The translations under genes and the position numbers were made by a program. Below, piece by piece: positions 1 through 21,490 of a DNA stretch of 27,310 bases. The notes under the pieces are model-generated. The model ran no database searches, had not been told where the DNA came from, and saw nothing but the letters and a program-made list of their open reading frames with translations. Position 1 is the stretch's first letter. Every line of letters starts with the position of its first letter. Source of the stretch: a virus (lineage: Duplodnaviria > Caudoviricetes); IMG/VR virus record IMGVR_UViG_3300032225_000322, positions 1 through 27,310 of that record; one strand, 5' to 3'.

Positions 1-2115
1 GATGCCGTCGTAGCCTTGCTTGCGAGCACGAGTGCTTACTTCTTTAGTTAAACCGCCTTTATCTTCGTAAGCCTTTTCCATTATGGCTTCGGCTTTTTCT
101 GTAGACACGCCGAGCGCTTCTAATAAAGCAACACCTGGATCTTTAGCTCTGTTATTAGTATGGATAATTAAAGGGTTTCGCAAGTCCGCAAAAACAGGCA
201 AAACATTACCGGTTGGAATTCCTTCTCCAGTTTTTTGAGCTTGTCGCAAAGGAGCAGTTATGTGCTCATTGCCGGTTTTTTCTAAAGCATCTATTACTTC
301 TGGGGTTGGTATGCCCGCATAATTATTTGAAATATCTGTTTGTGGGGTTAAGTAAACTCCTTCGCCCAAAGAACCTTCTTTGCTAACTTTAAACTGCGCA
401 ATACCTTTGCCTTGATTAGTTTCAGTTGTGCCATGATAAAGCGGGATCATGCGTCCGTTATCGTCTCTTACCTTTGATTCTTTAAAGTGCGCTTCAAATT
501 CCGCCGTATCTGGAATTGCAGGGGCATTAGATGGTAGCTGTGTCCCTGGCTTTTGGTTTTGCGCAGCTTCTAAACGTTTTAGTTCGTTTAAATAAACATC
601 TGCGGCTTCTTTACCTACAGTATATTCTAAATTCTGCGCTGTTTGTAAATTAGCCCTACTAATTTCACCTTTAAAATCATCCCGTGCAGACTGAATTATC
701 GGAGCATTTTCCCTAGTCTTTATAAATGCTTCTTCTTCAGCAACTAAAGCTTGATATTCTTTACCTTTTTTAGAATTAGCTAGTGGTATTCTGCCAGTCT
801 TAGTTAATAAAGCCGTTTTTTTGTCTTGAAACTCTTGAAGTTTTGCTTCTGCTTCCGCTCTTGTTAATGCACCCTGCTGTGATCCTTCTCCCACTCCAGA
901 TGTATCAGTAAGTCCTTTATCTCCACCCACGCTTCCAGGGGGAGGTGTTGTAGTTCCTGCGGCGGACTCGCCGGCTTCTTGTTGCTCAGATATAGGAACG
1001 CCTGACTTAGTTCTTCCGGTGTCAGTTCCAGTGTCAGTGTCTCGCTCATCTGTTTTGCCTTCTTTCTGTATCCGTATCATGTTATCAACGATTGCGCCAA
1101 TTTGCTCGTCTGTTGGAGTTTCTCCTCTGGCTTCCAAATCGTTTCGTACTGTATTGGCTAATTCGGCACGTTCTTTTTTGCTGAAATATTCTTTACCACC
1201 TTGAATGCCCGCACCTAAACCGCCGCCGACTATGGCGCCTTCAAGCATGTTTTGAGCTAACTCTGCAGCATCAACGCCTTTTTGAGTTCCTGCTGTACCA
1301 CCAAGATAACCAGCACCTTCTTCAAGAGCTTCTGTGCCGGATTGTACCGCCGTTTCTTTACCAATTCTACGTGCACCTGTAGACGCTTCAGCACCAAGTT
1401 TACCTTTAAACAAGCCTTTAGTAGCAAATCTCTCAAGCGTAGTTTCTATAACAGCTGCACCTGTAGCCGCAGTAATGTCAGCAATAGTTACGTCTTCTAA
1501 TTTTTTGTTATCGTTTTTAATGCGGTCGTTAAGAATCTCATTAGTTCTTGCCACTAAATAAGCTGGAGCTGCCATAGCCGCCGCTGCCATATCCGGAGCC
1601 GAAGCAATAACTCGTTCTGCAATAAAAGGAACAAGTAATAATGGTTTACCAGGAATTTCACCTAACTGAGTAGAAGGCGCATAGCCAATGTCTTTACCAT
1701 AATTACGTAAGGTATCTGCCCACTGGAACATAGGCTCTAACTGACGCTCGTTTTTAATTTGCTCTGGAGTTAGGTTTGTTAAAGGCACTGCTGTTTCTAA
1801 CTTATCGCCAAGGTTTTCTGCAACACGAGCAACGGCTTCTACGCCTTCACCGGCTAAACTAGACGCACGGGCAACAAGCCCCATAAATGGATTAGCAGTT
1901 TTATTTTCTTGAGCAGGCTCGGCCACAAACCTGCCTAAACTATCGGGCTGCGGTCCACTTACACCAAACCTATTACGAATAGCAGCTTGAGTTGCCTGAT
2001 TAGCTTCGGTGTAATTTTTATCTTGACCCGAATACTTATTAAAAATAGCTTCTTTAGTTGCTTCGTTTGCGTTTACGTAGTTAGGATCATTTAAAATCGT
2101 TAACAAATCTGCCAT
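1..2115 (-). CDS. Large polyvalent/ejected virion protein (3' end beyond window) with ART-PolyVal-like ADP-ribosyltransferase domain at about 1-498
   Basis: Hand translation from ATG at 2115 (2 nt after the stop of the 870-aa gene) is open to position 1 (705 codons): MADLLTILNDPNYVNANEATKEAIF... The last part reads FEAHFKESKVRDDNGRMIPLYHGT...SLGEGVYLTP...NNYAG...NVLPVFADLRNPL...RKQGYDGI, matching the motif series of ART domains in phage polyvalent proteins. Probably absent from the ORF track because it has no stop in the window. Confidence 0.9.
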   Translation of the reverse strand, partial: MADLLTILNDPNYVNANEATKEAIFNKYSGQDKNYTEANQATQAAIRNRFGVSGPQPDSLGRFVAEPAQENKTANPFMGLVARASSLAGEGVEAVARVAENLGDKLETAVPLTNLTPEQIKNERQLEPMFQWADTLRNYGKDIGYAPSTQLGEIPGKPLLLVPFIAERVIASAPDMAAAAMAAPAYLVARTNEILNDRIKNDNKKLEDVTIADITAATGAAVIETTLERFATKGLFKGKLGAEASTGARRIGKETAVQSGTEALEEGAGYLGGTAGTQKGVDAAELAQNMLEGAIVGGGLGAGIQGGKEYFSKKERAELANTVRNDLEARGETPTDEQIGAIVDNMIRIQKEGKTDERDTDTGTDTGRTKSGVPISEQQEAGESAAGTTTPPPGSVGGDKGLTDTSGVGEGSQQGALTRAEAEAKLQEFQDKKTALLTKTGRIPLANSKKGKEYQALVAEEEAFIKTRENAPIIQSARDDFKGEISRANLQTAQNLEYTVGKEAADVYLNELKRLEAAQNQKPGTQLPSNAPAIPDTAEFEAHFKESKVRDDNGRMIPLYHGTTETNQGKGIAQFKVSKEGSLGEGVYLTPQTDISNNYAGIPTPEVIDALEKTGNEHITAPLRQAQKTGEGIPTGNVLPVFADLRNPLIIHTNNRAKDPGVALLEALGVSTEKAEAIMEKAYEDKGGLTKEVSTRARKQGYDGI
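864..1049 (-). CDS. Putative nested (overprinted, +1 frame) 61-aa acidic helical protein inside the polyvalent gene
   Basis: ATG start; GAAGG at 1058-1062, 8 nt upstream; protein-like amphipathic sequence (LTPEELSQAFLYL, LPLEAWVEIKDLLIHLEWE); local GC about 53% versus about 34% at 661-840; the host frame here is a low-complexity linker. Confidence 0.6.
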   Translation of the reverse strand: MSETLTLELTPEELSQAFLYLSNKKPASPPQELQHLPLEAWVEIKDLLIHLEWEKDHSRVH

Positions 2116-2117
2116 TT

Positions 2118-4730
2118 TTATCCGCCAAGTAATGGGTTTTTAGTGTCTACTTGCCCTTTTGCTCCACCACCGCTAGCCCCTGCAGTTTGTTGTCCACCGC
2201 CAAGCCTTTTAACAATATTTTGATATATCTGTATTTTTTGTTCTTCAAGTTTTTTTCTGTCTTTTGGATCAAGTTCAGTGTTTTGCAATTTTAAGTTAAT
2301 AAGTTCAGTCTCGGCGGCAAACGCTTTTTCAATTTGTCCTTGGATAGTAGTATCAGCAGTTTTGTTTGATGCTGTGCTATACGCTGCTATTACTTCTGTC
2401 ATTGTCGGCTCACGCCCAAGTTTAGTTCTAAGTTCCTCACGAACAGCTTCTTTTTCTTTTGCAACCAAGTCGTAAGGAGCTTTGTGACTAGCAGCATTAA
2501 TACTTGCGGCACCAAGCGTAGCTGCGTTATTACCTTGAGCAATCTTAAGTTGGTTTTGCAATGTTTGGGCGTTGTCAAAGTGTTTGTTAGCTGCCTCAAT
2601 ATCTCCAGCGGCTCTTGCACGTACACCAGCTTCGTACTCTGCACCAGCTTTAGCAGTAGCCGATTTAAGCTCGTCAATAGTTTTAATATTAGCAGCCTTC
2701 TCACCAAGGTATCCAGTAGCAGCGCTACCAAGTTGACCGAATGTGTTTTTACCACCAGTCGGTTGTGTAAGGGACAAGAACGCTTTAGCTCTAGCCATAC
2801 GCTCTAACTGATCTTCTTTGCCAGCAATACCAGCTTGTTGTGCTTCTATTGAAGCTTGATATGCTTTACCTTTTTCACCAACAACATCAGGGTTAACACC
2901 TAACATGCGCATCATGTCTTGTTGTTCTTTTACGTAGTCGGCACGGGTCTTTTCTTTAGTCGCTTCTTTGTCAATAGCTTTTTGGGCCACTTTAGCTGGA
3001 GCTTTATTTGCAGCGTCTTGTGCAGCAGCATCTTTTTCAGCCTGTATACGCTGTTGGTCTACTAAACTATCACCTTCACCAGCAAAGGCAACAATGCCAC
3101 CGCCAGCCATTCTGCTACCCATGTTGTTAAACATATCACCACCGCCTTGAGCAATACCGCTCATCCTATCTGTTGGCATAGGGGGTTGTTGTGGGGGAGG
3201 CGCAGCTTGGGCCATCATCTGACCTGCTTGTGGGTTACTTCTAACGTATTGGTTATTAATCAAAGCACTATCAAATGTATTGTGCTCGTCTGGAGTAATG
3301 CCCGGTAAACCTTTAACTATATTTAGCTGCTTATCATCCATGCGGCCAGCCAGGGACTCAAGTTGAGGTTCGTTAACAAGCGTACCATATCTATAGCCGG
3401 GGACTTCTGCAATACCACCCGAGCGCATCTTTTTAATATCATCAACCGAGCCACCTTCACGAGCAGGTTTGCCACCGTATAAAGAACCAGCAGCGCCGAG
3501 TAAGCCCGTAGCCTGCATACCAAAACTTGGTTGCGCTTGATAAGAAGCTGTAGTTGTAGACTGCATTGGTAAACCACGCAACATAGAGTTAAGAACACCC
3601 AACTGCATGTATGGATATTGTTGTGCTGTAGCGTAGTTTTGAATCGCTTGATTCATAATCTGCTGTTGTTGAGCTTGTTGCTGACCGCCCATTGTATTTT
3701 GCAAATTAGCAATGCCTGTTTGAGCGTTAAGCTGTTGACCACCAATATTAGCTAAATTTTGAGCAGCGGTATTTGCCATACCATAACCAGCTTGTTGTGC
3801 GCCGACACCCTGTAAACCGGTTTGTGCGCCTTGTAAACCCATGCCATAACCTTGCATAGCTTGAGATCCTGCTTGGCCAACACCTTGTAAACCCATACCG
3901 TAGCCAGATAGGGCTTGTTGATTTCCAGCTAAAGCTGCTTGATTAGCAGCGTTCATTTGTTGCTGAGCTTGATTAAATGCTGTGTTGTATCCTTGACCAA
4001 TAATTTGATTCTGAGCCAACATTTGGTTTTGTTGGTTTAAAGAATTTGCTAATGCAGAACGTGACCCACCAAAAGCACCAGCAGATGTAGCAGCGCCTTG
4101 CTGTTGTTGACCAGCTATACCGTACTGTTGGTTGGCTAGTTGTAGCGCTGGGTTTAACGAGTTTTGTAAATACGGGTTCATGTAAGCGCCGACAGCGCTT
4201 GGGTCCGTAGACATTTGCCCTAAAGATTGCCCAATAGCAGCACCTTGTTGACCTTGCATTGCACCAGCGTTACCGTACGCATTTGACTGTCTTGCATATT
4301 GTTGTCCAGCCTGAGCTCCTAAATTACCGTACTGCTGGCCTTGTTGACCATACGCACTTGCTTGACCTGTAGTACCTAAAGCGCCTCTTCCCGCAATTCC
4401 GGCCATCTGGCTAGCAGCACCGTATTGTCCTGGCACTCGCATATTAGCAGCCGATGATTGTGCTTGTTGTTGCAGTGGAGAGAATCCTGCAACGTAATCT
4501 TCTGGGTTATCACTATAAGGTCTATACGGATTAAACCCGGTCATGTCCTTGTTGTAGACTTGCGCTTGTGCAGCGTTCATCATATTTTCTACATAAGGCT
4601 TTGCATACTCAGGAATATTAGTATTGTATGAAGTTGTTTGGCTAGGTTGACCGCCACCGCCACTGGGGCCGGAATCTCTAAGGACGCCACCATCGGCTAA
4701 TGCAAATCGTTTGTGTCTTAAAATGCTCAT
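2118..4730 (-). CDS. Ejection/DNA-transfer (internal virion) protein, Gln/Gly/Ala-rich
   Basis: 870-aa ORF; AYMNPY and GAFGGSR motifs, Q-rich helical segments and a coiled-coil C-terminal half; lies between the GNAT-like gene and the giant protein, as P22-type ejection genes do. Confidence 0.75.
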   Translation of the reverse strand: MSILRHKRFALADGGVLRDSGPSGGGGQPSQTTSYNTNIPEYAKPYVENMMNAAQAQVYNKDMTGFNPYRPYSDNPEDYVAGFSPLQQQAQSSAANMRVPGQYGAASQMAGIAGRGALGTTGQASAYGQQGQQYGNLGAQAGQQYARQSNAYGNAGAMQGQQGAAIGQSLGQMSTDPSAVGAYMNPYLQNSLNPALQLANQQYGIAGQQQQGAATSAGAFGGSRSALANSLNQQNQMLAQNQIIGQGYNTAFNQAQQQMNAANQAALAGNQQALSGYGMGLQGVGQAGSQAMQGYGMGLQGAQTGLQGVGAQQAGYGMANTAAQNLANIGGQQLNAQTGIANLQNTMGGQQQAQQQQIMNQAIQNYATAQQYPYMQLGVLNSMLRGLPMQSTTTASYQAQPSFGMQATGLLGAAGSLYGGKPAREGGSVDDIKKMRSGGIAEVPGYRYGTLVNEPQLESLAGRMDDKQLNIVKGLPGITPDEHNTFDSALINNQYVRSNPQAGQMMAQAAPPPQQPPMPTDRMSGIAQGGGDMFNNMGSRMAGGGIVAFAGEGDSLVDQQRIQAEKDAAAQDAANKAPAKVAQKAIDKEATKEKTRADYVKEQQDMMRMLGVNPDVVGEKGKAYQASIEAQQAGIAGKEDQLERMARAKAFLSLTQPTGGKNTFGQLGSAATGYLGEKAANIKTIDELKSATAKAGAEYEAGVRARAAGDIEAANKHFDNAQTLQNQLKIAQGNNAATLGAASINAASHKAPYDLVAKEKEAVREELRTKLGREPTMTEVIAAYSTASNKTADTTIQGQIEKAFAAETELINLKLQNTELDPKDRKKLEEQKIQIYQNIVKRLGGGQQTAGASGGGAKGQVDTKNPLLGG

Positions 4731-4733
4731 TTT

Positions 4734-5168
4734 TTAGTCCTTAAAAAACTTTTGGTACGAAACGCTTTGTACTTCATATCCGTACTTTTTAACATGTTTT
4801 CCCCAACCGGGACGCCCAATTAATTCAATTCCTGCGCACTGCGTATCTTTAGCAAATCTATCTAATACGTCGTACATTTTGTCTTCTACATACTGCATGT
4901 GATTAGCTTCTCCGGCACAATATTGGATAACTAACATTTTACACTGCGGGTATTGCTTTACTTCTGTTATTACATGCCCATAAGCTTTTTGCTCTTCAGG
5001 GGAAAAAACCATCCACAACTGCATATGGCCGTTAAGGATAAAACGCACTATATCGTCAACTGTAGACCTACCTCTAGTCCTCAATTCAGATTCTTTAAAG
5101 TATGGGTATAAAGCCCCTACAGTCTCGCTTATCTTTCCGACTGGTACTAAAGAGATTTCTAAGTTCAT
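4734..5168 (-). CDS. GNAT-fold acetyltransferase-like virion assembly protein (P22 gp14-like position)
   Basis: 144 aa; QLWMV...GHVITEVKQYP...LVIQYCAG...CAGIELIGRPGWGKHVKKYGY pattern typical of phage GNAT-like proteins next to ejection genes; ATGA overlap with the upstream gene. Confidence 0.65.
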   Translation of the reverse strand: MNLEISLVPVGKISETVGALYPYFKESELRTRGRSTVDDIVRFILNGHMQLWMVFSPEEQKAYGHVITEVKQYPQCKMLVIQYCAGEANHMQYVEDKMYDVLDRFAKDTQCAGIELIGRPGWGKHVKKYGYEVQSVSYQKFFKD

Positions 5169-7180
5169 TTAGGTAGATATTTCCCCGGTTTAACTTGCGG
5201 AGCTTGTTTCTTTTTGCCCGTTCTTGCGTTTCTTATTTTATCCATCATTGCATAAAGTTGCTTAGCACCGGCCTCAGTAGAGCCATTACCTAAATGAGAT
5301 ACCACATCTGCAGGTACTACAAATTCACCGTCGGCGAGGCGAGCTGGTTGGCGTTTACCAATCTGAGCTGGGATAGAATCAGACATGCCATCACCAGGGC
5401 CTTTAAGTAACCGACCGCCATCTGAGTAACCGCCTAATCCAGAAATACTGCCACCCATAGCGTAATGTAAATCTTGAGGCATCAAACCACCGCCAGCAGC
5501 GCCTGCGCCAACAGCATTAATCACCCACGGGTCAAAGTTATTTGCTGCATCTTGTTCAGCTTTTAATTCGGCTTGCACAGCAGCATATTGAGGCGAGCCT
5601 GCCATACCTTTAGGGTCAATAGCGTATCCAGTGCTGTTAGGCATTGCGCTTCTTGTAGGGATTGGGATCCCGCCGTATGCTTGTGCCATAGACGGATCAA
5701 ATGGGGTTTGAGCATAATTAGCATAATTAGCGTAGTTTGGACGATACACTTGTGGCGCAGCTGATTGGCTTGGTTGAAAATTACCTGTAGTAGAAGGTTG
5801 CGTTTGTGCTTGCGCTACTGCTTTTTGAACATCGCCCCCAAAAGCCATACCAATTATGCCGCCACTAGCTTCAGACTCAATATCACCGAGTTGTTTAGCT
5901 TCTTTAAGGGCTACTACATCTTTGCCCATTCCTGCTTTTTTAGAACGTTTTTTAAAGTTATACAGCGCTGCATTGTAAGCATCTAGGTCACGAGTGTTTG
6001 GATCGGTGTCGGTGTATATGCCAGGGTCAGCGCCAGAAGTTCGTGATAAAGTTACCGGCTCTTGAGTAGTAGCGGCGTTGTAAGCGTTAGCGGCGTCTAC
6101 TAAACTACCTGTTTTACCTGCATAAGAAGTAATGCCACCAGAAGCCATATGGTTTGTAGGCTCGCCAGTTAATGGGTTTGTCTCTGGGTCATAGCTAGCT
6201 AAAGTAGCTTGCATACTCATCGGGGTTTGTGGTGACGACGCATATTGCGTGTGGTCAATCTGGCTGCCTGGATACATACCACCAGAAGTAAAGTTTTTAT
6301 CTTGGGTTACACCGCCAATAGCCATACGTTGTGCACCGGGTTGATACGGATTTTTAGTGTAGTCGGTGTACTTTGCTTGGTACGCTGGGTTTGGCCGTTC
6401 TGGGAATGAACCTTGGAAGTTAGGGGACAAACTCTTTAAACTAAACGGATTTTGTTGCTGCTGACCGCCAGGCATTGTTGGGTTATTAAATGCACCCGTT
6501 AAAACTGGAGCCGCTGCCATACCAATATTGCTGACGTTATTAGCTAAAAAAGCTCCTGGAGCTGCGCTTGCTGCTTTTAACCCAGAACCCATAAGACTAG
6601 CGTTAGAAGGGGCAGCACCAAACGAATTAGTAAACGCCTGACCATAAGCATTTGCCGCTTCTGGGGTAATTGTTCCGTTAGCTACGCCTTGTGATAAAGC
6701 TTGTGGAGTCATTTTTGGAACGCTATTTAAACCAGGATCTAATGCGCTTGTACCTGCTTCTGTAGCACTTGCTAGTCCTGCTTCTCCAGCTGTTGCAGCT
6801 CCTGCACTCATTAACCCACTAGCCAAATTAGCACCGCCATAAGCACCAATACCTGCCATAATGCCTTGCTTTAAACTGCCTGTAACAGCGTAGTCGGCGG
6901 CACCAATACCACCAGCGGCAAGTGCAGAGTAAGCTTCTAGAGACATTCCACCAGTTTCAGGAGCCAAGGCAACAGCCGCAGCGCCAGCAAGCATAGGCAA
7001 AATACCGCTTAAAAATCCTGCTTCGGCAAGACCTGTTTCTGGGTTAATAGTTAAGCTACCACCATGAGCTTTAGCCATAGTCTGCAAACCACGAACTTCA
7101 TCCTTAGTCATGTGAACTAATTCGGTGTCGCTTCCACGACCTTGTCTTTTTAAGTGTTCTGCAGCTAATTTTAGGCTCAT
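5165..7180 (-). CDS. Internal virion/ejection protein
   Basis: 671 aa; N-terminal GRGSDTELVHM...GGSLTINPETGLAE motif then hydrophobic Gly/Ala helices; several MAxGG motifs; C-terminal GPGDGMSDSIPA...LADGEFV domain; RBS TAAGGGG at 7186-7192. Confidence 0.75.
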   Translation of the reverse strand: MSLKLAAEHLKRQGRGSDTELVHMTKDEVRGLQTMAKAHGGSLTINPETGLAEAGFLSGILPMLAGAAAVALAPETGGMSLEAYSALAAGGIGAADYAVTGSLKQGIMAGIGAYGGANLASGLMSAGAATAGEAGLASATEAGTSALDPGLNSVPKMTPQALSQGVANGTITPEAANAYGQAFTNSFGAAPSNASLMGSGLKAASAAPGAFLANNVSNIGMAAAPVLTGAFNNPTMPGGQQQQNPFSLKSLSPNFQGSFPERPNPAYQAKYTDYTKNPYQPGAQRMAIGGVTQDKNFTSGGMYPGSQIDHTQYASSPQTPMSMQATLASYDPETNPLTGEPTNHMASGGITSYAGKTGSLVDAANAYNAATTQEPVTLSRTSGADPGIYTDTDPNTRDLDAYNAALYNFKKRSKKAGMGKDVVALKEAKQLGDIESEASGGIIGMAFGGDVQKAVAQAQTQPSTTGNFQPSQSAAPQVYRPNYANYANYAQTPFDPSMAQAYGGIPIPTRSAMPNSTGYAIDPKGMAGSPQYAAVQAELKAEQDAANNFDPWVINAVGAGAAGGGLMPQDLHYAMGGSISGLGGYSDGGRLLKGPGDGMSDSIPAQIGKRQPARLADGEFVVPADVVSHLGNGSTEAGAKQLYAMMDKIRNARTGKKKQAPQVKPGKYLPK

Positions 7181-7208
7181 AGAGGCCCCTTACAGGTTGA
7201 TTTTGTTA

Positions 7209-7217
7209 ATTTTATCA
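7209..7217 (-). promoter_or_regulatory. Putative sigma70-type extended -10 promoter (TGaTAAAAT) for the ejection-protein genes
   Basis: Minus strand reads TATGATAAAATT in the largest intergenic gap of the window (7181-7219); no consensus -35 at 17-nt spacing (AGTGGA). Confidence 0.5.
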
Positions 7218-7219
7218 TA

Positions 7220-7516
7220 TTAAACCGTTGTTCCACTAGCGTTTTTCCACACCGTACCGTTCCACCAAATGGGAATTCCTAAGGTAGTATCAAAAAATAT
7301 CTGCCCAACTAGTAGGTTTTCAATAGGTCTATTTGCAGTAGTGTTATTAACCGGGATTGACGTTGCTTGGTTATAGTTATCTAGCTGGTTAAAATACAGA
7401 CGCATAATGTTATTTACTTCGTCTTGGTACGTTTGACTGTACTCTACCGGAGCAATTAATAAATTAGGAGATTTTGGGTAGCGTAAAGTACCAATCTTAT
7501 TATCTGTATTTGCCAT
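7220..7516 (-). CDS. Small tail-associated protein (P22 gp26-like position)
   Basis: 98 aa; PNLLIAPVEYS...LYFNQLD helix plus TTANRP...GQIFFDTTLGIPIWWNG fibre-type module; TAATG-coupled to the tail hub gene. Confidence 0.6.
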   Translation of the reverse strand: MANTDNKIGTLRYPKSPNLLIAPVEYSQTYQDEVNNIMRLYFNQLDNYNQATSIPVNNTTANRPIENLLVGQIFFDTTLGIPIWWNGTVWKNASGTTV

Positions 7517-9705
7517 TATCTTCTACCATCAGGTCTAATATCAATGCGTGGACTACCTAGTTGCCAAGCTACATCTTTTTCTGTAGATTCAATTCTAAAT
7601 GCCATTTGACGAGCACGAAGGCGGGTATATACCTGCCCGGTAAATTGCTGGATTGTGTATTCTGGAGCAACCGTATAGTTTTGTGCCGACTGCACTTGAG
7701 GGCTATCTGCTTGACCGTATGGAGTACCTGAGTTTTGGCGAGGTCTAACTGTCATAGTAACTTTTGGCTCGTTCCCAATTGACCCGTTAAAATTGACGTC
7801 AGGTAATATTCTCCAAACAAATCCAAAGTTATGCCCATCCCCAATGTCAAAATCAGAGCTTTGTATATAAGAGTAAATTGGCTGCGGACTTGTTGTTGCT
7901 GCATCATTGCAACCATTCTCATGGTAAATCAGTCTTTTATTGTAGTCGGCGGCAATAGGGTATTGGACAATACCGGTTTGGAACCAAGCAGAACGATTCA
8001 TGTTACCGTAGTACCAGACTCTATCTAAGTAGTTATATATAACGTATTTGTCTACTACAGTATTGTTGCTTGATTGACTTACATAGAACCACCAAACTTC
8101 GTTAAAAGCGGCGTTTGCCCCAGCAAATACTTGGTATGCTTGGTCTTGATTAATGTCTGCATAAATGTATTGACGTAGCGAGCAAGGTAAGGTTTCTACT
8201 CGTCCAGAATACATATAGAAACGGTCAACACCCATCCAATAAGTTATATTATTAACCGTAATCATAGCATTGGGAGATATTACAGAGATGTTATCCATAA
8301 GCATTTGGAAACCCCAAACATACGGAGGTCCAAGATACTGCATAGAATATATCGCCGAGTCACTCCAAACTAAAATTTCTTGGCGAGTTGACCGTGCCCC
8401 AATAATATAAGAGCCATTGGTTAAAAGATATTCACCAGATTGGTTTGTAGTTGTTGGAACCCATTGATATGCATTTGCTTGGTCTGCCCAACGAACTAAC
8501 ATTGGGTCAAATGCGGAGTTACTTACTAATTTACCGTTAACTGTAGCGGTTGCGGCTCCAGGGGTGTATGGGTTAGCTCCAAAAGCAATAACAAACTCTT
8601 GCACTTCAGAAGTAAGAACTTGATTAGTCTTAGTCGGTATATATCCACCAGCGTAAGAGAAGTTATAGCTTCCGGCATTTACACCTGTAGTAGCGTTAGT
8701 AATAGGAACTGTAGTAGCCCCGGTAACATAGCTTGACCCTACTTGTGTCCCTACGGGAATGTTTGTGCCTGATATAACCATAAACGGATAAATATAAGGG
8801 GCAGTCCCTGCAGGAATAGTAATGGAGCTAACACCACTAGTAAACGTAGCGGTTGAAGTAAATGCTGTAGTAGTATTAGCCACCGCACTTAAATAGGTAG
8901 CATTTGTACTTACCCCATTAGCATCTTGCCAGTAGAATATCGGCCCACCACGAGGAGCTAAAACAAGGTCGGTGCCATAGTTATCGTTAGTCCAAAGACG
9001 TAGCTGCTGACCAATACCAACGTTGTATGCAGAACCCCATGCGCCACGAGACCAAGGACCAGCGCCCCAGCCATTACCTGTAACATAAACGTCAAGTCCA
9101 GCAGGGTAGTAGTATGCAATTGTAACCGTACCACCACCAGAACCTGTAACAGGCACAGGATAAGCAATTGTGTATTGGGTTGCAGAAAGTACAGAAACCA
9201 CAGTGTACTGCCCAGAAATAGTTACACCGCTACCATAATAACCACCCCAGCCATTAGCAGACCAAGGGTCTTCGCCCCAGCCAGCACCCGCTCCTACAGG
9301 GGCAGAGCTAGTAATATATATGGTGTCCCCAGCATTTGGGCTATAAGATGCATCTGTAACAGTAACTATATTAGTGCCGTTCCCAGTAAATGGGTTAGTT
9401 AAAGTATCTGTTTGGACTATTGGGGTAATGTTGTAATAAATACCGCCTTGGTAAATAAAGTAACCGCTGTTTGTACCTAAACCAATATAAATATTGCCGC
9501 TTCCTAAATCCCCGTCAGCCCATACCCATAATGAACGGCAAACACCGCTATACTGGCTATTAGATATTTGCTGCCAACCACCAATTTTCTCAGGAAAACC
9601 AGAACGGAAACGAATTTTGTCGCCATCATACCAACCCCCTTCGTTGGAGTAGTCAGTACCTTCACGGTTTAATCCTGGTCGAAACTGTAGTTTTTGTAAC
9701 GGCAT
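7516..9705 (-). CDS. Tail hub / DNA stabilization protein (P22 gp10-like beta-propeller)
   Basis: 729 aa; MPLQKLQFRPG...GGWYDGDKIRFRSGFPEKIGGW start, DPMLVRW, FNEVWWFY and ...RLRARQMAFRIES...WQLG...DIRPDGRR end, recognisable from this family. Confidence 0.8.
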   Translation of the reverse strand: MPLQKLQFRPGLNREGTDYSNEGGWYDGDKIRFRSGFPEKIGGWQQISNSQYSGVCRSLWVWADGDLGSGNIYIGLGTNSGYFIYQGGIYYNITPIVQTDTLTNPFTGNGTNIVTVTDASYSPNAGDTIYITSSAPVGAGAGWGEDPWSANGWGGYYGSGVTISGQYTVVSVLSATQYTIAYPVPVTGSGGGTVTIAYYYPAGLDVYVTGNGWGAGPWSRGAWGSAYNVGIGQQLRLWTNDNYGTDLVLAPRGGPIFYWQDANGVSTNATYLSAVANTTTAFTSTATFTSGVSSITIPAGTAPYIYPFMVISGTNIPVGTQVGSSYVTGATTVPITNATTGVNAGSYNFSYAGGYIPTKTNQVLTSEVQEFVIAFGANPYTPGAATATVNGKLVSNSAFDPMLVRWADQANAYQWVPTTTNQSGEYLLTNGSYIIGARSTRQEILVWSDSAIYSMQYLGPPYVWGFQMLMDNISVISPNAMITVNNITYWMGVDRFYMYSGRVETLPCSLRQYIYADINQDQAYQVFAGANAAFNEVWWFYVSQSSNNTVVDKYVIYNYLDRVWYYGNMNRSAWFQTGIVQYPIAADYNKRLIYHENGCNDAATTSPQPIYSYIQSSDFDIGDGHNFGFVWRILPDVNFNGSIGNEPKVTMTVRPRQNSGTPYGQADSPQVQSAQNYTVAPEYTIQQFTGQVYTRLRARQMAFRIESTEKDVAWQLGSPRIDIRPDGRR

Positions 9706-9708
9706 GGT

Positions 9709-10296
9709 TTACCCTAGTATAGACATTGCTTTGGCAATTTTGGCTTTACGGTCATCAAGCCCGATTAGGCCGCCGTTAATACGTTTTGTTATTGTCTCAT
9801 AATCCTTAGCATCAGCCAAGGCGTTTAATCCTTTTTTGTTCCAGAACCATCCTGCGGAAAGGCAAGCGTATCGTGGATCTAACAATAACTCAGGGTCAGC
9901 AAGAAGATCAGCGCCAATACCAGATCCGCAGTGTTCATAGTTTTCTTTCCCTGTAAGCTGGATAAGTCCCCTACCTAAATATTTAGCAGCCTCTTCTTCA
10001 CTAGTGTTACCCAATCGTCCGTTGTAAACCTTACTTGCAATTTTGGCTGGTTGACGTGCATATTGGTCAGCAACTTCTTTAGTTGGAAAACGGCTAGGCC
10101 AAGTTTTCATTAACCCCTCGGCGCTGTAGTTAAGGTTTTCTTGTAAGATTTTAAAATTACCAGACTCATGAGCACACTGACCAATAAACGATGCTTGACG
10201 GATAGGTGTTGTAATGTCATATTTAGCAAACGCCTCTTCTAAAGGTCCAAGCCACTTGTGGTCAATACCTAGTTTATCTAGTTGGTCATACGTCAT
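9709..10296 (-). CDS. Endolysin, glycoside hydrolase family 19 (chitinase-like)
   Basis: FIGQCAHESG, ENLNYS, YLGRGLIQLTGKENY, SAGWFW and TKRINGG motifs. Confidence 0.93.
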   Translation of the reverse strand: MTYDQLDKLGIDHKWLGPLEEAFAKYDITTPIRQASFIGQCAHESGNFKILQENLNYSAEGLMKTWPSRFPTKEVADQYARQPAKIASKVYNGRLGNTSEEEAAKYLGRGLIQLTGKENYEHCGSGIGADLLADPELLLDPRYACLSAGWFWNKKGLNALADAKDYETITKRINGGLIGLDDRKAKIAKAMSILG

Positions 10297-10700
10297 TCTT
10301 TCTTTTCCTTAGCTTTCATATCCATAATTTTTTCTAGAGTACGTCCGCCAAAGTAAAAAGACATAATTAACATACCCCATTGGCCTAGCAATTCCACATA
10401 AGTTTTGTTAGTATCTAGGTCAAAGGCCGACATCATGGCAAATACAAAATAACCTATAAGGATAGCAATCAATGTCATGGGACGAATGTTTTTCGATAGC
10501 CAACTATCTGAGCTCATATCTGCTTCTTGTCGCTTGGTCAGTTCTTGAGCTTCTGCTGTGTCTGCCTGTAACTCTGCTAATCGGCCTTGCTGTTGCAGCT
10601 CTATTAATTTTGCTTGCGCCTCTGCTTTTGCAGCTGGGTCGGGGATAACCTTGTCTAGGATTTTCATCCCAACGCCAATAATGTCGTCTATACCAAACAT
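10293..10700 (-). CDS. Holin (GTA-type 3TM holin family)
   Basis: ILDKVIPDP, SDSWLSKNIRPM, two hydrophobic helices and FYFGGRTLEK; ATGA-coupled to the endolysin. Confidence 0.85.
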   Translation of the reverse strand: MFGIDDIIGVGMKILDKVIPDPAAKAEAQAKLIELQQQGRLAELQADTAEAQELTKRQEADMSSDSWLSKNIRPMTLIAILIGYFVFAMMSAFDLDTNKTYVELLGQWGMLIMSFYFGGRTLEKIMDMKAKEKKE

Positions 10701-10711
10701 ATTATTTCTTT

Positions 10712-11167
10712 CTAAAACTGTTTATAACCCCAAGTAAGGTACCAGGCAATGACCGCAGCCACTGCAAAGCAATAGAACTGTACTCTTTTAACTGCTTTAT
10801 AGTCGTGTTGAAAATCTTCATTATTTTTACGCTCCATATCGTCTATATCCAATTTAATTTTTAGCACTGCTTCCCATTCTTTAGCGCCATACTTTTTTAC
10901 AAAATCTATTTTTAGTTTTGCTTCTTGGTCGCTAATTTGCTTTTTATGGTTCCAGTCCCTCAATGCTTTAATTAATGCCGTTTCTTTTTTAAACTCTATT
11001 TCTCTAACCGCTCGGCGTCTTTCCGTTGCTCTCTTTTGCGCTACTTCAAAGCTTTCATTTTGTATATCTTCAATACTTTTAGATAGCCCTTTACTAGCCT
11101 CCCGACTTGCATCTAGGCTTCCGCTAAGAGTCTTTACTCCTTCGGTTATACCAAACGGGTCGGACAT
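10712..11167 (-). CDS. Hypothetical coiled-coil protein with C-terminal transmembrane helix
   Basis: 151 aa; charged helical body, then FYCFAVAAVIAWYLTW; directly upstream of the holin. Confidence 0.75.
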   Translation of the reverse strand: MSDPFGITEGVKTLSGSLDASREASKGLSKSIEDIQNESFEVAQKRATERRRAVREIEFKKETALIKALRDWNHKKQISDQEAKLKIDFVKKYGAKEWEAVLKIKLDIDDMERKNNEDFQHDYKAVKRVQFYCFAVAAVIAWYLTWGYKQF

Positions 11168-11176
11168 AATTCACTT

Positions 11177-11365
11177 TTATTTCACCTTCTTTGTCAGTGC
11201 GGTTTTAGCCTTAGTAGCTTTAGATGGCAAAGGTCTTGTTTTTCTTACTCGTGGTTTAGGTTCTTCTAAATCTGGTATTTTTGGTTCAAAGTTAACTTTA
11301 CCGACTTCAACCTCAATCTTTGGCATATAGCCAAGCTTGTCAAATAACCAGCTAATAATAAACAT
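11177..11365 (-). CDS. Hypothetical small protein (amphipathic N-terminus, basic tail)
   Basis: 62-aa ATG ORF that fills the gap between tail fibre and lysis genes. Confidence 0.7.
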   Translation of the reverse strand: MFIISWLFDKLGYMPKIEVEVGKVNFEPKIPDLEEPKPRVRKTRPLPSKATKAKTALTKKVK

Positions 11366-11366
11366 A

Positions 11367-12965
11367 TTAAGCCCCTACCTTTGCTTGAAGTGCTGCAATT
11401 TTTGCTGCTTGCGCATCTACTTTTGCATTAAGTTCTTTAATAGCACCTACTAAATAAGCAGTCATATCATTTTGCCAACCAATAGACAATGTACGATCAT
11501 TAATAAAGGGCTTTTCTTGGTCGTTAGGTACGTGGCTAGAAACTGCATTAGGTATAACTTGTTGTACTTCTTGGGCAATAAAACCTACTGTTGGTTCAGT
11601 TGTCTCGTATTTCCATGAATAAGTTACTGGATTTAAAGCATTAATTTTGTTTAACGCACCTGTTAACGGAGTTGGGTTATTTTTTAAACGAGAGTCTGAA
11701 ACAGAACCCCAATTACCGCCACCTGTTTTATAAGCCCCTCCGTCCCCAGCAAAAATAAACGCATTAATAGCGCTAGAACCTGCGGGGTTTTTAAAATTAA
11801 AATTATATTGTTGGTCTGTTAAAGAAGTTGATGAAGTAGCATAATAAATAGAGTTATATAAATTACCAGTAATTGAACTATAAAAATTAACAGATGAACT
11901 ACTTAAGACCATTGAATTTGTAGTAGTATTCCCACCAAAATAACTTAGATTACTAAAATAATTTAAACCTGAAAATGAATTAGCTGTATTTAACGCTGCT
12001 AAATTAGCTGTAGCAGGGCTTTGCGATGCCCAAACACTTCCGTTAGAAACTAACAAATTTCCTGCTGTACCTGAAGTAGATAAACCTGTACCGCCATTAC
12101 CAACAGCTACTGTACCGTTTAAGTTAACGCTAGGGTTTGCCCCCGTTCCAGTTACAGAAATATTAGTTCCGCCGCTTACAGAAGTTACTGAGCCACCTAA
12201 AGACCAAACAAATTGATTGGTTGCACCGTTATAAGTTAAATAAAAAATATCTGATGTTCCAGGTTTTGCAAAGAATTGTGTTACTCCTGGGCTAGACTGA
12301 TATACCAAAGAGTTTGTAGTACCACCAGCAAGGGCACTAACAGTACCAGTACTCCAGCTAAAACCAGAACCAGGAGTGTAAGTTAATATTGTTGCAGAAC
12401 CGGCAGAAGGGGGAGCATCAATAAAGTTTGTAGCGCTAGCGCCTGTTTGGTAAGGTATTTTATTTGCTGCGCCGCCACCTAAGCTACCACTAAATACAGG
12501 GGCTGTGATTGTGCCGGTAGCGCTGATTGTTCCAGTAATGCTTAAGTTACCCCCAGTAAATCCGGTAATACCAGAGGAAAAGTTTGTGCCATCGCAATAC
12601 ACTAAAGTAGTTAAACCGTTAGCAATAGTAACAGTAGAGCCAGTAGTTGCGCCAATAGTAATAGCAAACCCACCAGTAGTTTGGTTAGATATAATATAAA
12701 CTTTTTTCACTAGGGGAGCTACAATTGCATTAACCCCTGAGGCAGACCCAGTTACTACGATGACTGCATTTCTAGACTGGTCTGTTGTACCGTTTGCTAC
12801 CGATAAAGTAGCTCCTGAAGTACCTGAAATAGTTACTTGGGCAACGCCAGCTACAGCATCTTCAATAAGCTGCCAGTTAGTGTTAGTTGTGTCTCCCCAG
12901 CTACCAGATTGCTCTCCATTACCTATTTTGGTAAGGGTTAGACTGGTTGTATATGTAGATGCCAT
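11367..12965 (-). CDS. Tail fibre with C-terminal intramolecular chaperone (Peptidase S74)
   Basis: MASTYT...GEQSGSWG anchor; S/T/G-rich shaft with VGNGGTG; SDSRLK at about 11699, GFIAQEV and LVGAIKEL coiled coil; RBS AAGGA. Confidence 0.9.
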   Translation of the reverse strand: MASTYTTSLTLTKIGNGEQSGSWGDTTNTNWQLIEDAVAGVAQVTISGTSGATLSVANGTTDQSRNAVIVVTGSASGVNAIVAPLVKKVYIISNQTTGGFAITIGATTGSTVTIANGLTTLVYCDGTNFSSGITGFTGGNLSITGTISATGTITAPVFSGSLGGGAANKIPYQTGASATNFIDAPPSAGSATILTYTPGSGFSWSTGTVSALAGGTTNSLVYQSSPGVTQFFAKPGTSDIFYLTYNGATNQFVWSLGGSVTSVSGGTNISVTGTGANPSVNLNGTVAVGNGGTGLSTSGTAGNLLVSNGSVWASQSPATANLAALNTANSFSGLNYFSNLSYFGGNTTTNSMVLSSSSVNFYSSITGNLYNSIYYATSSTSLTDQQYNFNFKNPAGSSAINAFIFAGDGGAYKTGGGNWGSVSDSRLKNNPTPLTGALNKINALNPVTYSWKYETTEPTVGFIAQEVQQVIPNAVSSHVPNDQEKPFINDRTLSIGWQNDMTAYLVGAIKELNAKVDAQAAKIAALQAKVGA

Positions 12966-13814: not shown

Positions 13815-15911
13815 TTAGTAAGTCGGCAAAGCCGCTGTGGGCGGTGTGAATGTAGTGGTATAACGAGCTAAACCATTGGTAATGCGTAGGTCATCTATAT
13901 AGCCATTGAAAGATTCATTTCCGTTTGTTGCGTTAGCACCAATATATGGTCGTGTGGCAGAACCTAAATAATTAGTTGAATCTGACCAAATTGAACCAGA
14001 TTGATTTCCATTAATAAACATTGCAGTGCTGGTTCCAACCCTTGAAATTGCTAGATGAAACCAAGTGCCTGTTGTTACTGCATTTGATGATGTAATTTGA
14101 ATTGTTGAATTAACATACCAAAGAAGTTTGTTTGTTGATCCTTGAAGAATAATACAAGGATATGCCCCGTTGCTTGGTCTACCGTCATACAGAACCATAT
14201 CTGTACCTGGAAGCGAATTTACATAAATCCACATTTCAATAGTGAAATCCCCAGTACCAAAAGCGTATAAACTTGAATTTGCAGGATTTGATGTTAAATA
14301 GTTTCCAGAACCACCGCCAAAACTCAAACTACCTGTCCCATACTTCTTAACACTTGTGCTTACTTGTGCATTACCTACTGTTTGTAGGTTGTTCTGCATA
14401 GCAAGGTCAGGGATGCCAGCGTTAGTAAATCCGGTTAAAAGCGATGTTCCTGATATTGCAGTTAATGGCGCAGTGGGAACGGTAATTGTTGAATTGCCAA
14501 CACCGTAAACATCTACACCTTTTACAAAACGTACATCAGACATATTGCCTGCCAAATACGAACCACCTGTCCCAACGCAATTATTACCAATAGAAAACTT
14601 GCTGTAAGAAGGAATACTGTATCCGTTGGTTGATGTACCAATAGAAGTGCCGTTAACCCAAGCTCTTGTAGTTGAGCCATTATATCCAATGGCTACATGG
14701 CACCATTGGTTTGTAGGCACTCCGGTACCAGTTAAATTCCATTCTGTACCGTTTCCTCTACTAAACTGCCAATAAAATGTTCCGCTGTAATTTGCGTAGC
14801 ATGAAAACAAAATACCGGTTGAGGCGTTCCAATCGTTTGAAGAGCCTTGAACTTGAAAAACAATTGCTTGAGTAGCAGTTTGATATATCCAAAATTCAAA
14901 AGTAAATGCAGAGCCGGGTGTAAATTGATTGGTTACTTGTGTTGTGTTATTTAAATAGCTTGTACTACCATCAAAGTATCCACTTCCACCTATTACGCTA
15001 GTAGAGTATGGTGCTGTTGGGTTAAATGGTGAGAAGCGTTGGACTGATGGTGAGCCACTTACAGTTAAAGCAAAAGCATTTGAACTATTGTCAATAAAAC
15101 GATTGCTTTGGCAAGTCAACAAAGTTGTATTTGTAATTGCCGTTAATGGTGTAGTTGGTGGAGTAAATGTTGTTGTATAAACGGCTGTTCCTTTTACTAA
15201 ACGAACATTAGAAATATAACCTGGAAAAGGGTCTGTGCTACCACCATTAGAACCAATCGCAAAGCCTAAACTGCTATCTCCAAGAGTTGCGCTTGATGAT
15301 GCAGTACCACCACTAACACCATTGATGTAAATGGTAATGGTTGAGCCATTTCTAACTCCAGCAATATGATTCCAAGCATTAAGTTTTAACCCTATTGATG
15401 ATACTATGTAATTAGCACCACCATCATAATAAAAGTTCAGACCAGCACCGCTAGTCATATAAAAAATCATCTTTTGAGTTGATGTGCTTCCTTGGTGCAA
15501 AATCCTAGCATCAGCCGATGCAGAAGTTGGGTAAGCCCAACATTCCCAAGTAAAGTCACCTGGCAATGACCAAGCTGAATTAGCTGCAAGCGTTAAATAG
15601 TTCCCAGCACCGCCAAAATAATTACTCCACAAATTACCATAAGGACTAAAGCTACCCTGTGTAGTATTGCCGTTACGAGTAATAGTAAAGTTATTGGTAG
15701 AGCTATCTAAGAATGTATTGTTCTGTGCGCCATTAGTACCATCGCCATTGAGTAACAATGTAACATCGTAGAAGTATGGGTCAGCAGGAGTGTATATTGG
15801 CCAAAGATTTTGGCTTTGCAAATAAGCCACTTGCTCAAGCGTCCACACACCACTATACGGAAAAGTGGGTGCTGTTTGGTTAATTATGCCGCCAGGCCAA
15901 CGTTCGCTCAT
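13815..15911 (-). CDS. Concanavalin A-like lectin (LamG) x3 protein, putative receptor-binding/adhesion protein
   Basis: Three domains marked by DFTWECW, AFTFEFW and DFTIEMW, each with WxHxA and YxNG motifs, ending in GYIDDLRIT; 698 aa. Confidence 0.9.
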   Translation of the reverse strand: MSERWPGGIINQTAPTFPYSGVWTLEQVAYLQSQNLWPIYTPADPYFYDVTLLLNGDGTNGAQNNTFLDSSTNNFTITRNGNTTQGSFSPYGNLWSNYFGGAGNYLTLAANSAWSLPGDFTWECWAYPTSASADARILHQGSTSTQKMIFYMTSGAGLNFYYDGGANYIVSSIGLKLNAWNHIAGVRNGSTITIYINGVSGGTASSSATLGDSSLGFAIGSNGGSTDPFPGYISNVRLVKGTAVYTTTFTPPTTPLTAITNTTLLTCQSNRFIDNSSNAFALTVSGSPSVQRFSPFNPTAPYSTSVIGGSGYFDGSTSYLNNTTQVTNQFTPGSAFTFEFWIYQTATQAIVFQVQGSSNDWNASTGILFSCYANYSGTFYWQFSRGNGTEWNLTGTGVPTNQWCHVAIGYNGSTTRAWVNGTSIGTSTNGYSIPSYSKFSIGNNCVGTGGSYLAGNMSDVRFVKGVDVYGVGNSTITVPTAPLTAISGTSLLTGFTNAGIPDLAMQNNLQTVGNAQVSTSVKKYGTGSLSFGGGSGNYLTSNPANSSLYAFGTGDFTIEMWIYVNSLPGTDMVLYDGRPSNGAYPCIILQGSTNKLLWYVNSTIQITSSNAVTTGTWFHLAISRVGTSTAMFINGNQSGSIWSDSTNYLGSATRPYIGANATNGNESFNGYIDDLRITNGLARYTTTFTPPTAALPTY
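14395..14423. repeat. 29-bp exact direct repeat, copy 1 (copy 2 at 16480-16508)
   Basis: tgcatagcaaggtcagggatgccagcgtt is identical in both LamG genes. Confidence 0.9.
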
Positions 15912-15926
15912 AATGTAATCATATCC

Positions 15927-17966
15927 TTAAGAAGTTGGAAACGCAGCAGTTGGTGGCGTAAAGTTAGCTGTATAACGAGCCACTCCATTGGTAATGCGTA
16001 GTTCATCTATGTAGCCGTAAAAACCTGAGCTTCCATTATCAGAACCAACAAATAGACTTGGTATGTTGTTGCTTGCTAATGCCGTTGTAGATGAAGCCAC
16101 AGCTGTTCCATTAACATAAACTGTGTATGTTGCACCATCTTTAACTAAACACATATGCCACCATGTACCAGCTGCGGGAATTGTAACTACTTGATTTATA
16201 TTGTTAATTGCACCATCACCAACAATCATTTTACCGCCACCTTCATTTGCCCAAACAAAATAAAATTGTCTTGGGTTTCCGCTAACTAATACTTGGGTAA
16301 AAGCATTGGTTGTAAAATTAACCCATCCTTCTATAGTCCAGCTACCAACACCAGGATTAAAGGTTGCTGCTGGGCTTGTTAATAGATAATCTCCGCTACC
16401 GTCAAACGCAATAGAGCCTGTTCCATATTTCTTAACGCTTGTGTTTACTTGTGCATTGCCCACTGTTTGTAAATCGCTTTGCATAGCAAGGTCAGGGATG
16501 CCAGCGTTGGTATATTGAGGCAGTAAAGCAGTGTTGGTTATATTAGCTGGCGGTGCAGTTGGTGGCGTAAAGTTGCTAGTGTATACAACAGAACCAACTA
16601 CTAGTCTGTATCCCGCCATATACCCATAACACGAGTCGTAGTTACTACTAAAGTTGGTGTAAAACCCAATATAGTTTTCTGATCCAGTTTTAGAGTTGTC
16701 ATAATATCCAGTTCCAACGCTAACACCATTTAAATAAGCTACAATATTTCCAGACGACCTTGTAATAGCTACGTGGTACCATTGGTTTATAGGCAAAGCG
16801 CCAGTAAAAGTTTGATTAAAAGGCCATCCAAAACCAGGACTCATAGCCACACCGAGACCATAAGCGCAGTTCATTCCAACGGCAAGTCCAAAGTACCCGT
16901 TATTAGTGCCACCAATATCAATTAAACTTCCGCCACCACCATAAGGGCCGCCAGCTATGGGATAAAACCAAGTCTCAAAAGTAAAATTAGTATTACCGCC
17001 TACTTGGGCAGCGCTGCTGGTAAAGTTTAAATAGCTACTGGCAGAAAAATATGCGCTTCCACCGTTGGTTGTTGTGCTGTACGCAGAGGTTGGGTTGAAA
17101 GGGGACAGGGGTAATACTTGTGGTGTACCGTTTGCTGTAATCGTAAAGTTATTAGAGCTGCTGTCTTTAAAACGGTTTGATTGGCAAGTTAATAGGCTTG
17201 TACCACTTATAGCAGTCAACGGCGTTGTACTTGGTGTAAAGTTACTTGTGTAAACCGCTGTGCCTTTAACAAATCTAATATTTGATATATAGCCAGGGAA
17301 ATTACTAGAATTCCCACTATCGTAGCCATCTGAACCAATCATTGGTCTGTTAGCAGCGCAAATATAATTTCCAGAATCTGAATAAGTTCCAGAAGCAATA
17401 CCATTTATATAAACAGTTGTAGTTCCTGAGTTTTTTACAAGTGCTACATGAGTCCATCCATTAAGAGCTACAGCAACAGAACTTGTTAACACAGCAGAAG
17501 CATATTGCCAAAGTTGCACTTGATTTGACGAATTAAGTCGCATTCTTAATCCAGTTGTAGCTCCTGAGCCACTTGGCAAAGTATCAAATACAAATGGTGT
17601 TCCACCGCCAGTAGTTAAATATACCCATGCTTCTACAGTCCAATTTCCAGTACCCATAGCACAAGCAGTATTTGCGCCCACCGCATATATGTAATTTCCA
17701 GAGCTACCATTAAAGTAATTACTCCAGTTACTACCATAAGGATTAAAGCTACCTTGGGTTAAATTACCATTACGATTTAATGTGATGTTGTTGGTAGAGG
17801 AGTCTGGAAAAGTATTGTTTTGCGCTCCATTAGTACCGTCACCATTAAGCAGTAATGAATTAGCATAAAAATATGGGTCTCTTGGAGTGTATACGGGCCA
17901 ATTAGACGCAGCCTGGGCTTGCATCTGTTGTTGTAAAGTAAAAGAACCTGAGTATTGAGTAGCCAT
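15927..17966 (-). CDS. Concanavalin A-like lectin (LamG) x3 protein, paralog of 13815-15911
   Basis: NWTVEAW, NFTFETW and SWTIEGW domains; linkers shared with the neighbour (LLLNGDGTNGAQNNTF, NAGIPDLAMQ, RITNGxARYT). Confidence 0.9.
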   Translation of the reverse strand: MATQYSGSFTLQQQMQAQAASNWPVYTPRDPYFYANSLLLNGDGTNGAQNNTFPDSSTNNITLNRNGNLTQGSFNPYGSNWSNYFNGSSGNYIYAVGANTACAMGTGNWTVEAWVYLTTGGGTPFVFDTLPSGSGATTGLRMRLNSSNQVQLWQYASAVLTSSVAVALNGWTHVALVKNSGTTTVYINGIASGTYSDSGNYICAANRPMIGSDGYDSGNSSNFPGYISNIRFVKGTAVYTSNFTPSTTPLTAISGTSLLTCQSNRFKDSSSNNFTITANGTPQVLPLSPFNPTSAYSTTTNGGSAYFSASSYLNFTSSAAQVGGNTNFTFETWFYPIAGGPYGGGGSLIDIGGTNNGYFGLAVGMNCAYGLGVAMSPGFGWPFNQTFTGALPINQWYHVAITRSSGNIVAYLNGVSVGTGYYDNSKTGSENYIGFYTNFSSNYDSCYGYMAGYRLVVGSVVYTSNFTPPTAPPANITNTALLPQYTNAGIPDLAMQSDLQTVGNAQVNTSVKKYGTGSIAFDGSGDYLLTSPAATFNPGVGSWTIEGWVNFTTNAFTQVLVSGNPRQFYFVWANEGGGKMIVGDGAINNINQVVTIPAAGTWWHMCLVKDGATYTVYVNGTAVASSTTALASNNIPSLFVGSDNGSSGFYGYIDELRITNGVARYTANFTPPTAAFPTS
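16480..16508. repeat. 29-bp exact direct repeat, copy 2 (copy 1 at 14395-14423)
   Basis: Same 29-mer, in the linker encoding NAGIPDLAMQ between LamG domains 2 and 3. Confidence 0.9.
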
Positions 17967-21064: not shown

Positions 21065-21490
21065 TTAGTTGGAAAAACGAATGATAGCGTTTGAAGCATC
21101 GTCCGTAGGAAAAGTTATTGTAAAACTCGATGTCGGGGTTTTATCAGCCCCAAAATTCAGTACTGCAACCGCTGCGTTTGTGGTGCTATTATATATTAAA
21201 GCGCCTCTAGTGGTAAAGTTTGCTGGGTTCCAGGTCACGTTATTAAACGACAGATAAGCGGTGTATTCAGAGCTAGTCGGCGGAATAACCGTTAGGATTT
21301 TACCCCCTGCCGTGTACCCCGTACCTACCACTTCCCCCACAGTTGTATAGGCTAGCGTTGTGTTATTTAAGTTGGCGTTGGCTGTATATAGGGCTATTTT
21401 ATAGGTATAAGGGGTTCCAACCGCAAAGTTCTCTAAAGCACTTAGACAGTTTTGTTTGAATATGGTGCACTGACCTTGGACTATGCTCAT
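21065..21490 (-). CDS. Virion structural protein
   Basis: 141 aa; YKIALYT, EVVGTGYTAGG, RGALIYN and VLNFGADK motifs common in phage tail clusters. Confidence 0.78.
   Translation of the reverse strand: MSIVQGQCTIFKQNCLSALENFAVGTPYTYKIALYTANANLNNTTLAYTTVGEVVGTGYTAGGKILTVIPPTSSEYTAYLSFNNVTWNPANFTTRGALIYNSTTNAAVAVLNFGADKTPTSSFTITFPTDDASNAIIRFSN

Follow-up and report, generated by a model that had tools for sequence, protein, structure and literature searches.

A 61-aa protein is encoded at positions 864-1049 (minus strand), in the +1 frame of a giant gene that likely specifies an ejection protein, and comparison with relatives indicates that this nested frame is a conserved gene under purifying selection. 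Judged by its conservation and start signals, it is almost certainly translated. The family is large (220 clusters), occurs in 18 of 39 relatives found through an independent anchor gene, and has no convincing Pfam or PHROG match. Our overall interpretation, held with more doubt than confidence, is that widespread uncultured aquatic podophages carry a LarA-like regulator of the Lon protease hidden in the linker of a giant ejection gene, the linker sequence being a by-product. This regulator would mimic a His-terminal docking signal, protect or time the ejection proteins, recombine as a module of its own, and have escaped the overlap at least once.

Genomic Context of the Nested Gene

The window, i.e., the whole stretch of DNA that was analyzed, is a 27.3-kb fragment of a phage record, 42% complete, with its annotated genes on the minus strand. 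It contains tail, lysis and virion genes, and the giant gene is situated at one end, where it is cut by the contig end. The relevant features are as follows:

1-2115, minus strand: giant polyvalent gene, 705 aa visible, cut by the contig end; likely an ejection protein
1-465, minus strand: ART-PolyVal domain (giant residues 551-705); a variable cargo domain, not the constant partner of the nested gene
862-1050, minus strand: linker in the host frame (giant residues 356-418), rich in G/A/T/P/V and nearly without aromatics
864-1049, minus strand: nested gene, ATG...TAA, +1 relative to the giant gene; product of 61 aa, acidic and predicted to be helical
867-878, minus strand: C-terminal tail S-R-V-H; family consensus S-x-[LVI]-[HQN], putatively resembling Lon histidine degrons
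1058-1062, minus strand: GAAGG resembling a Shine-Dalgarno motif, 8 nt ahead of the nested ATG; most relatives have GGAG/GAGG/AGGA here
2118-4730, minus strand: 870-aa gene upstream of the giant, member of the ejection cluster
7516-9705, minus strand: virion structural protein (phrog_3287), 729 aa; independent anchor for the prevalence of the nested gene

The giant gene is of the polyvalent class, being multidomain, with LPD, ART and MPTase domains, and located within a virion gene cluster. To the same class belong the polyvalent proteins with LPD38/LPD39, MPTase and ART domains described in PMC5512222, as well as gp47 of phage phi24B. The complete homologues of the giant are ~1600-2900 aa long, mostly with LPD38 or LPD39. 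A role in ejection is likely, based on its place in the cluster, on the annotation of the equivalent position in phage DSL-LC04 as 'DNA transfer protein', and on the proposal that the LPD38-bearing phi24B gp47 is an ejection protein (bioRxiv 10.64898/2026.04.10.717836). The cargo domains 3′ of the nested gene vary and include HATPase (four giants: L017, L021, L078, L101), YkuD L,D-transpeptidase (two: L027, L073), ART and HExxH. A weak FtsK-gamma match is seen just upstream of the nested gene in the giant of L109. The giant of L003 is split into frames of 1048 and 969 codons (6699-9842 and 9812-12718) and is whole in the close relative L002, the split representing a frameshift or an assembly error.

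The nested ORF occupies host codons 356-418 of the ORF running from 2115 to 1, in the +1 frame, and its product ends in SRVH. An earlier note, made from this DNA alone, had described a 61-codon ATG...TAA ORF in this frame of the polyvalent gene, with GAAGG 8 nt upstream and a low-complexity host frame over it. The ORF (864-1049, minus strand) and the motif (1058-1062) are indeed found there, and the overlap is composed in the host frame of 17% G, 12% A, 12% T and 10% P, with almost no F, W or Y. The GC counts of that note (98/186 for the ORF versus 61/180 for the comparison interval) were reproduced exactly. Elevated GC was nevertheless rejected as proof of the nested gene because it is not unique to this region: other 200-nt bins of the window reach 0.50-0.56. 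Several other genes of the window have +1 stop-free runs of 61-134 codons, and the Shine-Dalgarno (SD) motif of the window is weaker than in most relatives. The signals within the window alone are weak, and the proof lies in the comparison with relatives.

As a control, the other alternate-frame ORFs of the window were compared with homologous DNA; three are interrupted by stops in some homologues and two were unmatched. The 59-codon +1 ORF in the giant (window 1257-1436, minus strand) is open in the three closest relatives, has five stops in L015, and is not a conserved gene. For the 118-codon +1 ORF in the 870-aa gene (window 2399-2755, minus strand), tblastn gave no match among the fetched loci, and it is therefore probably a by-product of composition.

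Conservation and Selection

A search with the small protein identified 12 viral loci (43-88% identity), and in each the gene is nested within a giant ORF, in +1. Searching with the host protein instead yielded 11 loci, each of which carries the nested gene in +1; two of these contigs were already known and three are near-copies. Over all fetched phage loci, 120 distinct DNA versions were obtained, of which 118 lie within an ORF of ≥300 aa, in its +1 frame, and two are free-standing, a ratio valid for the sampled clades only, because most versions were found with the small protein as query. All 120 copies are located in the late ejection cluster. Three candidates (L038-L040) were discarded as false pattern matches lying in the giant's own frame. 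A profile search extended the family to 220 clusters at 50% identity, three of the 150 listed appearing spurious; the genomic context was traced for two of them (P0010 and P0130).

The nested frame is the constrained one. In 25 disjoint pairs, dN/dS calculated on the same shared DNA is 0.18 in the nested frame versus 1.78 in the host frame (gap-free pairs only, 65-97% DNA identity, last 50 codons). Differences within the overlap fall at nested codon positions in the ratio 131/101/280, an excess at third positions. The upstream flank behaves normally for the host frame, with 551/382/1050 differences by host codon position and a pN/pS of 0.34. The proposal of the earlier note that selection acts on the alternate frame is thus borne out by the dN/dS of the relatives, and the composition of the host-frame linker appears to be a by-product of this selection.

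The frame, start, stop and ribosome-binding site are likewise kept in the homologues. With a start rule blind to the SD, 54 of 68 copies have an SD motif before the start, versus 144 of 3619 background +1 ATGs; the count becomes 63/68 if the start is picked by best SD. Contigs from other sequencing runs (X2-X4, two studies) match the window from 862 to ~1051 and have unlike flanks, and loose contig ends at the nested start codon in these runs carry a stronger SD. No RNA record was listed among the holders of the nested-gene sequence.

Distribution and a Free-Standing Lineage

The 729-aa structural gene served as an anchor independent of the nested gene. It was found at 110 loci, and the giant was sufficiently visible in 39 of these: the nested gene is present in 18 and absent from 21. 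The anchor gene itself occurs in an estimated ~5100 stretches in IMG/VR. No different nested gene was seen in 22 giants of non-carriers, and 11 non-carrier records, several of them incomplete, yielded no relocated copy. All five carrier genomes inspected have a single copy each. The presence of the gene is patchy, with 15 label changes on a quick anchor tree versus a shuffled mean of 19.4.

Two copies stand free (L107:4400-4576 and L108:7001-7177, the latter genome being G001). They have their own SD and lie between the first two genes of the ejection cluster, next to a 424-aa gene that is matched by the N-terminal half of the 870-aa gene of the window. The other frames over these copies are full of stops. 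In G001 (98% complete), the free-standing copy is the only one, and the giant has no nested copy. L107 and L108 group with the nested L109-L111 (SH-aLRT 99, from only 57 columns and with a midpoint root), and escape from the overlap, from nested to free-standing, would therefore be the likelier direction.

Judged by the anchor gene, the nearest named phages are DSL-LC04, MinM2, HTVC023P/027P and CRP-901, and none of these five records contains the nested gene. A tblastn search of INPHARED with the small protein gave no match, and a scan of GTDB contigs found no nested gene. In the family of G006 (301 genomes), only the phage contig of G006 itself matched; a second, weak match contains three stops.

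Three of four non-carriers (G410, G411 and G412 are in the set) share two genes of ~230 and ~295 aa that are unmatched in carriers. The carriers compared (G420, G423, G424, G003, G005 and G001) share several small genes unmatched in non-carriers. Carriage of the nested gene may follow the genome lineage or a replication module.

Relation to ART and Other Domains of the Giant

The earlier note had also proposed that the nested gene encodes an antitoxin of the ART domain that travels with this effector, about 370 nt separating the two. The ART-PolyVal domain, from residue 551, is found ~400 nt past the nested stop, and the proposed association is not borne out. With a custom profile, ART is detected in 10 of 54 C-terminally complete carrier giants and is missing from the other 44; with Pfam, it scores above the cut-off in 4 of 40 carrier giants and below it in two more. 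The closest homologues, L001 and L002 (84-88% identical), are without ART, as are all but one of the 18 anchored carriers. Where present, ART lies ~100 to 900 residues past the nested gene. All 18 ART-bearing giants of the co-occurrence set carry the nested gene, and ART is found in 0/22 non-carriers, but most carriers of this set were found through the small gene and 19/22 non-carriers are truncated.

No domain co-occurring strictly with the nested gene was found among the giants compared. The carriers are of the LPD38 or the LPD39 type, with cores to which some non-carriers can also be aligned. The flanks (300-330 giant residues on each side of the nested gene) were compared in 110 pairs with 45-60% small-protein identity; an alignment was possible for the upstream flank in 20 of them and for the downstream one in 14. 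With so few pairs aligning, the constant partner is unlikely to be one giant domain. Conservation is far higher in the small protein than in the surrounding giant domains, and the nested gene has been kept while both flanks were swapped and has left the giant altogether in one lineage. The small proteins are slightly more alike in giants of the same LPD type (0.44 vs 0.39). From these comparisons, the nested gene appears independent of ART and of any one giant domain tested.

Predicted Structure and C-Terminal Tail

The earlier note describes an acidic helical hairpin; the predicted model has helices at residues 11-22 and 38-57 and a free tail (mean pLDDT 79.9). The median net charge in the family is -5. 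Conserved positions are L9, A17, L21, P30, L33, L36, W41, L48, L51, E54, K55, S58 and the last two residues. Sequence searches of Pfam, PHROG and PDB gave no convincing match, only scattered single-member matches or matches with E>0.5; a word-based homologue search returned nothing, and the ESM Atlas had no usable match. No fold search produced a clear match; the best VIA match (Z 5.2, rmsd 3.5, 58 aligned) is to a homeodomain-like three-helix arrangement. Foldseek with the predicted model found nothing at E<=0.001.

All 107 distinct proteins terminate in [LVIM][HQN] (H 74, Q 21, N 12), an ending found in 81 of 1610 background +1 peptides. The free-standing copies end in STIH and STVH; as they keep the His, the host frame does not force the tail. 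According to a crude gene caller, the nested gene is in 6/6 near-complete carrier genomes the only called gene (of 66-80) ending in [LVIM]H, and among four non-carrier genomes one other gene with this ending was called. A 74-aa acidic protein ending in DTIH is encoded by the non-carrier G412 (C1:49244-49468, minus strand) and is possibly an unrelated His-tail protein.

Such endings are known from substrates of Lon. In the Caulobacter protein LarA, His89 and Val88 bind a conserved groove of the Lon N-domain (PMC11882793), and the last five residues are described as a transferable degron (PMC10665427). Yersinia Lon degrons with a terminal His include VTLH, FTVH and LSLH (PMC11986505, Table 1). 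The degron motif published there is x-L/I-L/I/V-H; the small-protein family lacks its L/I at position -3, which is mostly S/P/T/R/Q (L in 9/145). Degrons with T or S at -3 are, however, also published, and several known degrons have a hydrophobic residue at -4 (PMC11986505), a position that is mostly S in the family. As terminal residue, Yersinia Lon ranks His first, Val second and Pro third (PMC11986505); terminal Val or Pro never occurs in the small-protein family, while Q and N do. Among Smg homologues (24/29 loci parsed), the terminal residue is H in 20, Q in three and S in one. The small-protein profile shows no homology to Smg (hhalign probability 9%). Based on these resemblances, the tail probably acts as a Lon recognition signal, though this is far from assured.

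Possible Function

It is well possible, and this is the reading that we favor, that the small protein is a late cytoplasmic decoy or modulator that docks on Lon, rather than a mere substrate, and shields the ejection proteins until packaging. The nested gene product would be made late, from the same message as the ejection proteins, its position coupling its expression to the mRNA of the largest virion protein, which is partly disordered. The terminal [LVI]-His tail would dock on the host Lon, which we assume to be of the type that binds His tails. Acting as decoy or modulator, the docked protein would allow newly made large, partly disordered ejection proteins to survive until they are packaged, and would itself be short-lived.

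A degron by itself would be equally expected of a short-lived chaperone and of a Lon regulator. Such a chaperone or assembly factor would hold a shared feature of the ejection proteins in check, e.g., hydrophobic membrane-inserting segments, and be cleared by Lon via its tail once released. It would suit the conserved positions, which are mostly Leu, Trp and Ala, the hydrophobic segment found upstream of the nested gene in 41 of 49 giants, and the fact that the gene stays in the ejection cluster even outside the giant. Yet the small protein is much better conserved than the giant on either side of it, and the giants of 21/39 anchored relatives lack the nested gene; a chaperone is rather unlikely.

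It is improbable that the protein serves superinfection exclusion or counter-defence through another conserved host target, the tail only limiting its lifetime. In its favor, the gene is accessory and single-copy, has a patchy distribution (the 15 versus 19.4 changes on the quick tree) and is conserved independently of its flanks, whereas the confinement of 120/120 copies to the late ejection cluster and a model with no apparent membrane segment argue against it.

The possibility that it inhibits the HExxH metallopeptidase of the giant, with the terminal His/Gln/Asn and the carboxylate blocking the zinc site until ejection, is quite improbable. This peptidase is the domain most widely common to LPD38- and LPD39-type carriers, occurring in 38 of 54 complete carrier giants and also in the giant of G001, where the small gene stands alone; it is, however, missing in 16 of the 54 and present in 8 of 22 non-carrier giants.

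Very little speaks for a +1 frameshift that would give the N-terminal part of the giant a Lon degron, with no separate protein. The nested frame is always +1 and downstream of the N-terminal domain, and one 489-aa database protein (P0016) passes from the giant's frame into the nested frame mid-linker, probably through an indel, perhaps of assembly. Against such a frameshift, SD and start codon belong to the nested gene itself, 15/68 copies have an in-frame stop 0-3 codons ahead of the start, no slippery hexamer is common to most copies (the best, in 32/66, lies inside the coding part), and stand-alone copies exist. A cognate ART antitoxin moving with its domain, despite the 18/18 and 0/22 counts of a mostly gene-selected set, is largely refuted by the 44/54 complete carriers and nearest homologues without ART and by the ~100 to 900 residues between the two, and can practically be dismissed.

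Comparison with Known Systems

Nested phage genes as a kind are already known. In phage lambda, Rz1 is embedded in Rz, the two encoding membrane spanin subunits that act together. As in Rz1/Rz, one gene is contained entirely in the +1 frame of a second, where the latter encodes a low-complexity linker. Unlike Rz1, the nested gene is accessory, appears to encode a soluble protein, is found inside a gene of ~2000 codons, and can relocate.

Phage modulation of host proteases is also established. T4 PinA is a phage modulator of Lon. Lambda CIII acts on FtsH (PMC1838920) and SPO1 encodes a ClpCP adaptor-like protein (PMC6873191). The mode proposed here would be similar, with a small phage protein being both substrate and modulator of a host protease; PinA, CIII and the SPO1 protein are encoded by ordinary genes and show no family match, whereas the nested gene sits in a late virion gene.

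A close parallel to the Lon-docking reading is LarA, an allosteric Lon activator of Caulobacter with a DUF1150 domain (PMC10665427, PMC11882793). Both are small proteins in which a short free tail with terminal Val-His follows a helix. LarA differs by its four-stranded sheet core, its chromosomal heat-shock gene and Val at -4, whereas the nested protein is predicted to be all-helical, is phage-encoded and has Ser at -4. Its model shows helices only instead of the alpha/beta fold, and no Pfam match to DUF1150 was obtained among 145 family members. Smg, SulA and Y2853 (PMC11986505) likewise have a terminal His after L/V/I, and the variation from H to Q in the nested family resembles that of Smg homologues. 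The family differs from this class in that -3 is rarely L/I, N endings occur and the Smg profile does not match.

In the main text of the study on polyvalent proteins (PMC5512222), the word 'overlapping' is absent, and its passages on these proteins mention no nested gene. A literature search over titles and abstract openings, with few subscription papers, gave no report of the nested family. New here are the finding that the gene is not linked to ART, a lineage in which it stands free, an estimate of its prevalence, and the proposed tail-based mechanism. The family offers a natural series for the evolution of overlaps: most copies are nested, about half of the relatives have none, and one lineage, placed among nested copies, has the gene free-standing. 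Should the tail dock on Lon, phages would here be imitating the His-terminal Lon-binding signal described only recently. This would also provide a testable answer to the question of how ejection proteins so large and partly disordered escape host quality control until they are packaged.

Other Genes in the Window

A 144-aa gene (window 4734-5168, minus strand) lies at the position occupied in CRP-901 by a GNAT acetyltransferase; since the carrier L005 has no room for it, its presence is not coupled to that of the nested gene. Two adjacent genes of ~690 aa (window 13815-17966, minus strand) each contain three laminin-G/concanavalin-like stretches and are probably paralogous tail proteins. Two further genes (window 21487-22425 and 23505-24428, minus strand) match the SU10 adaptor family.
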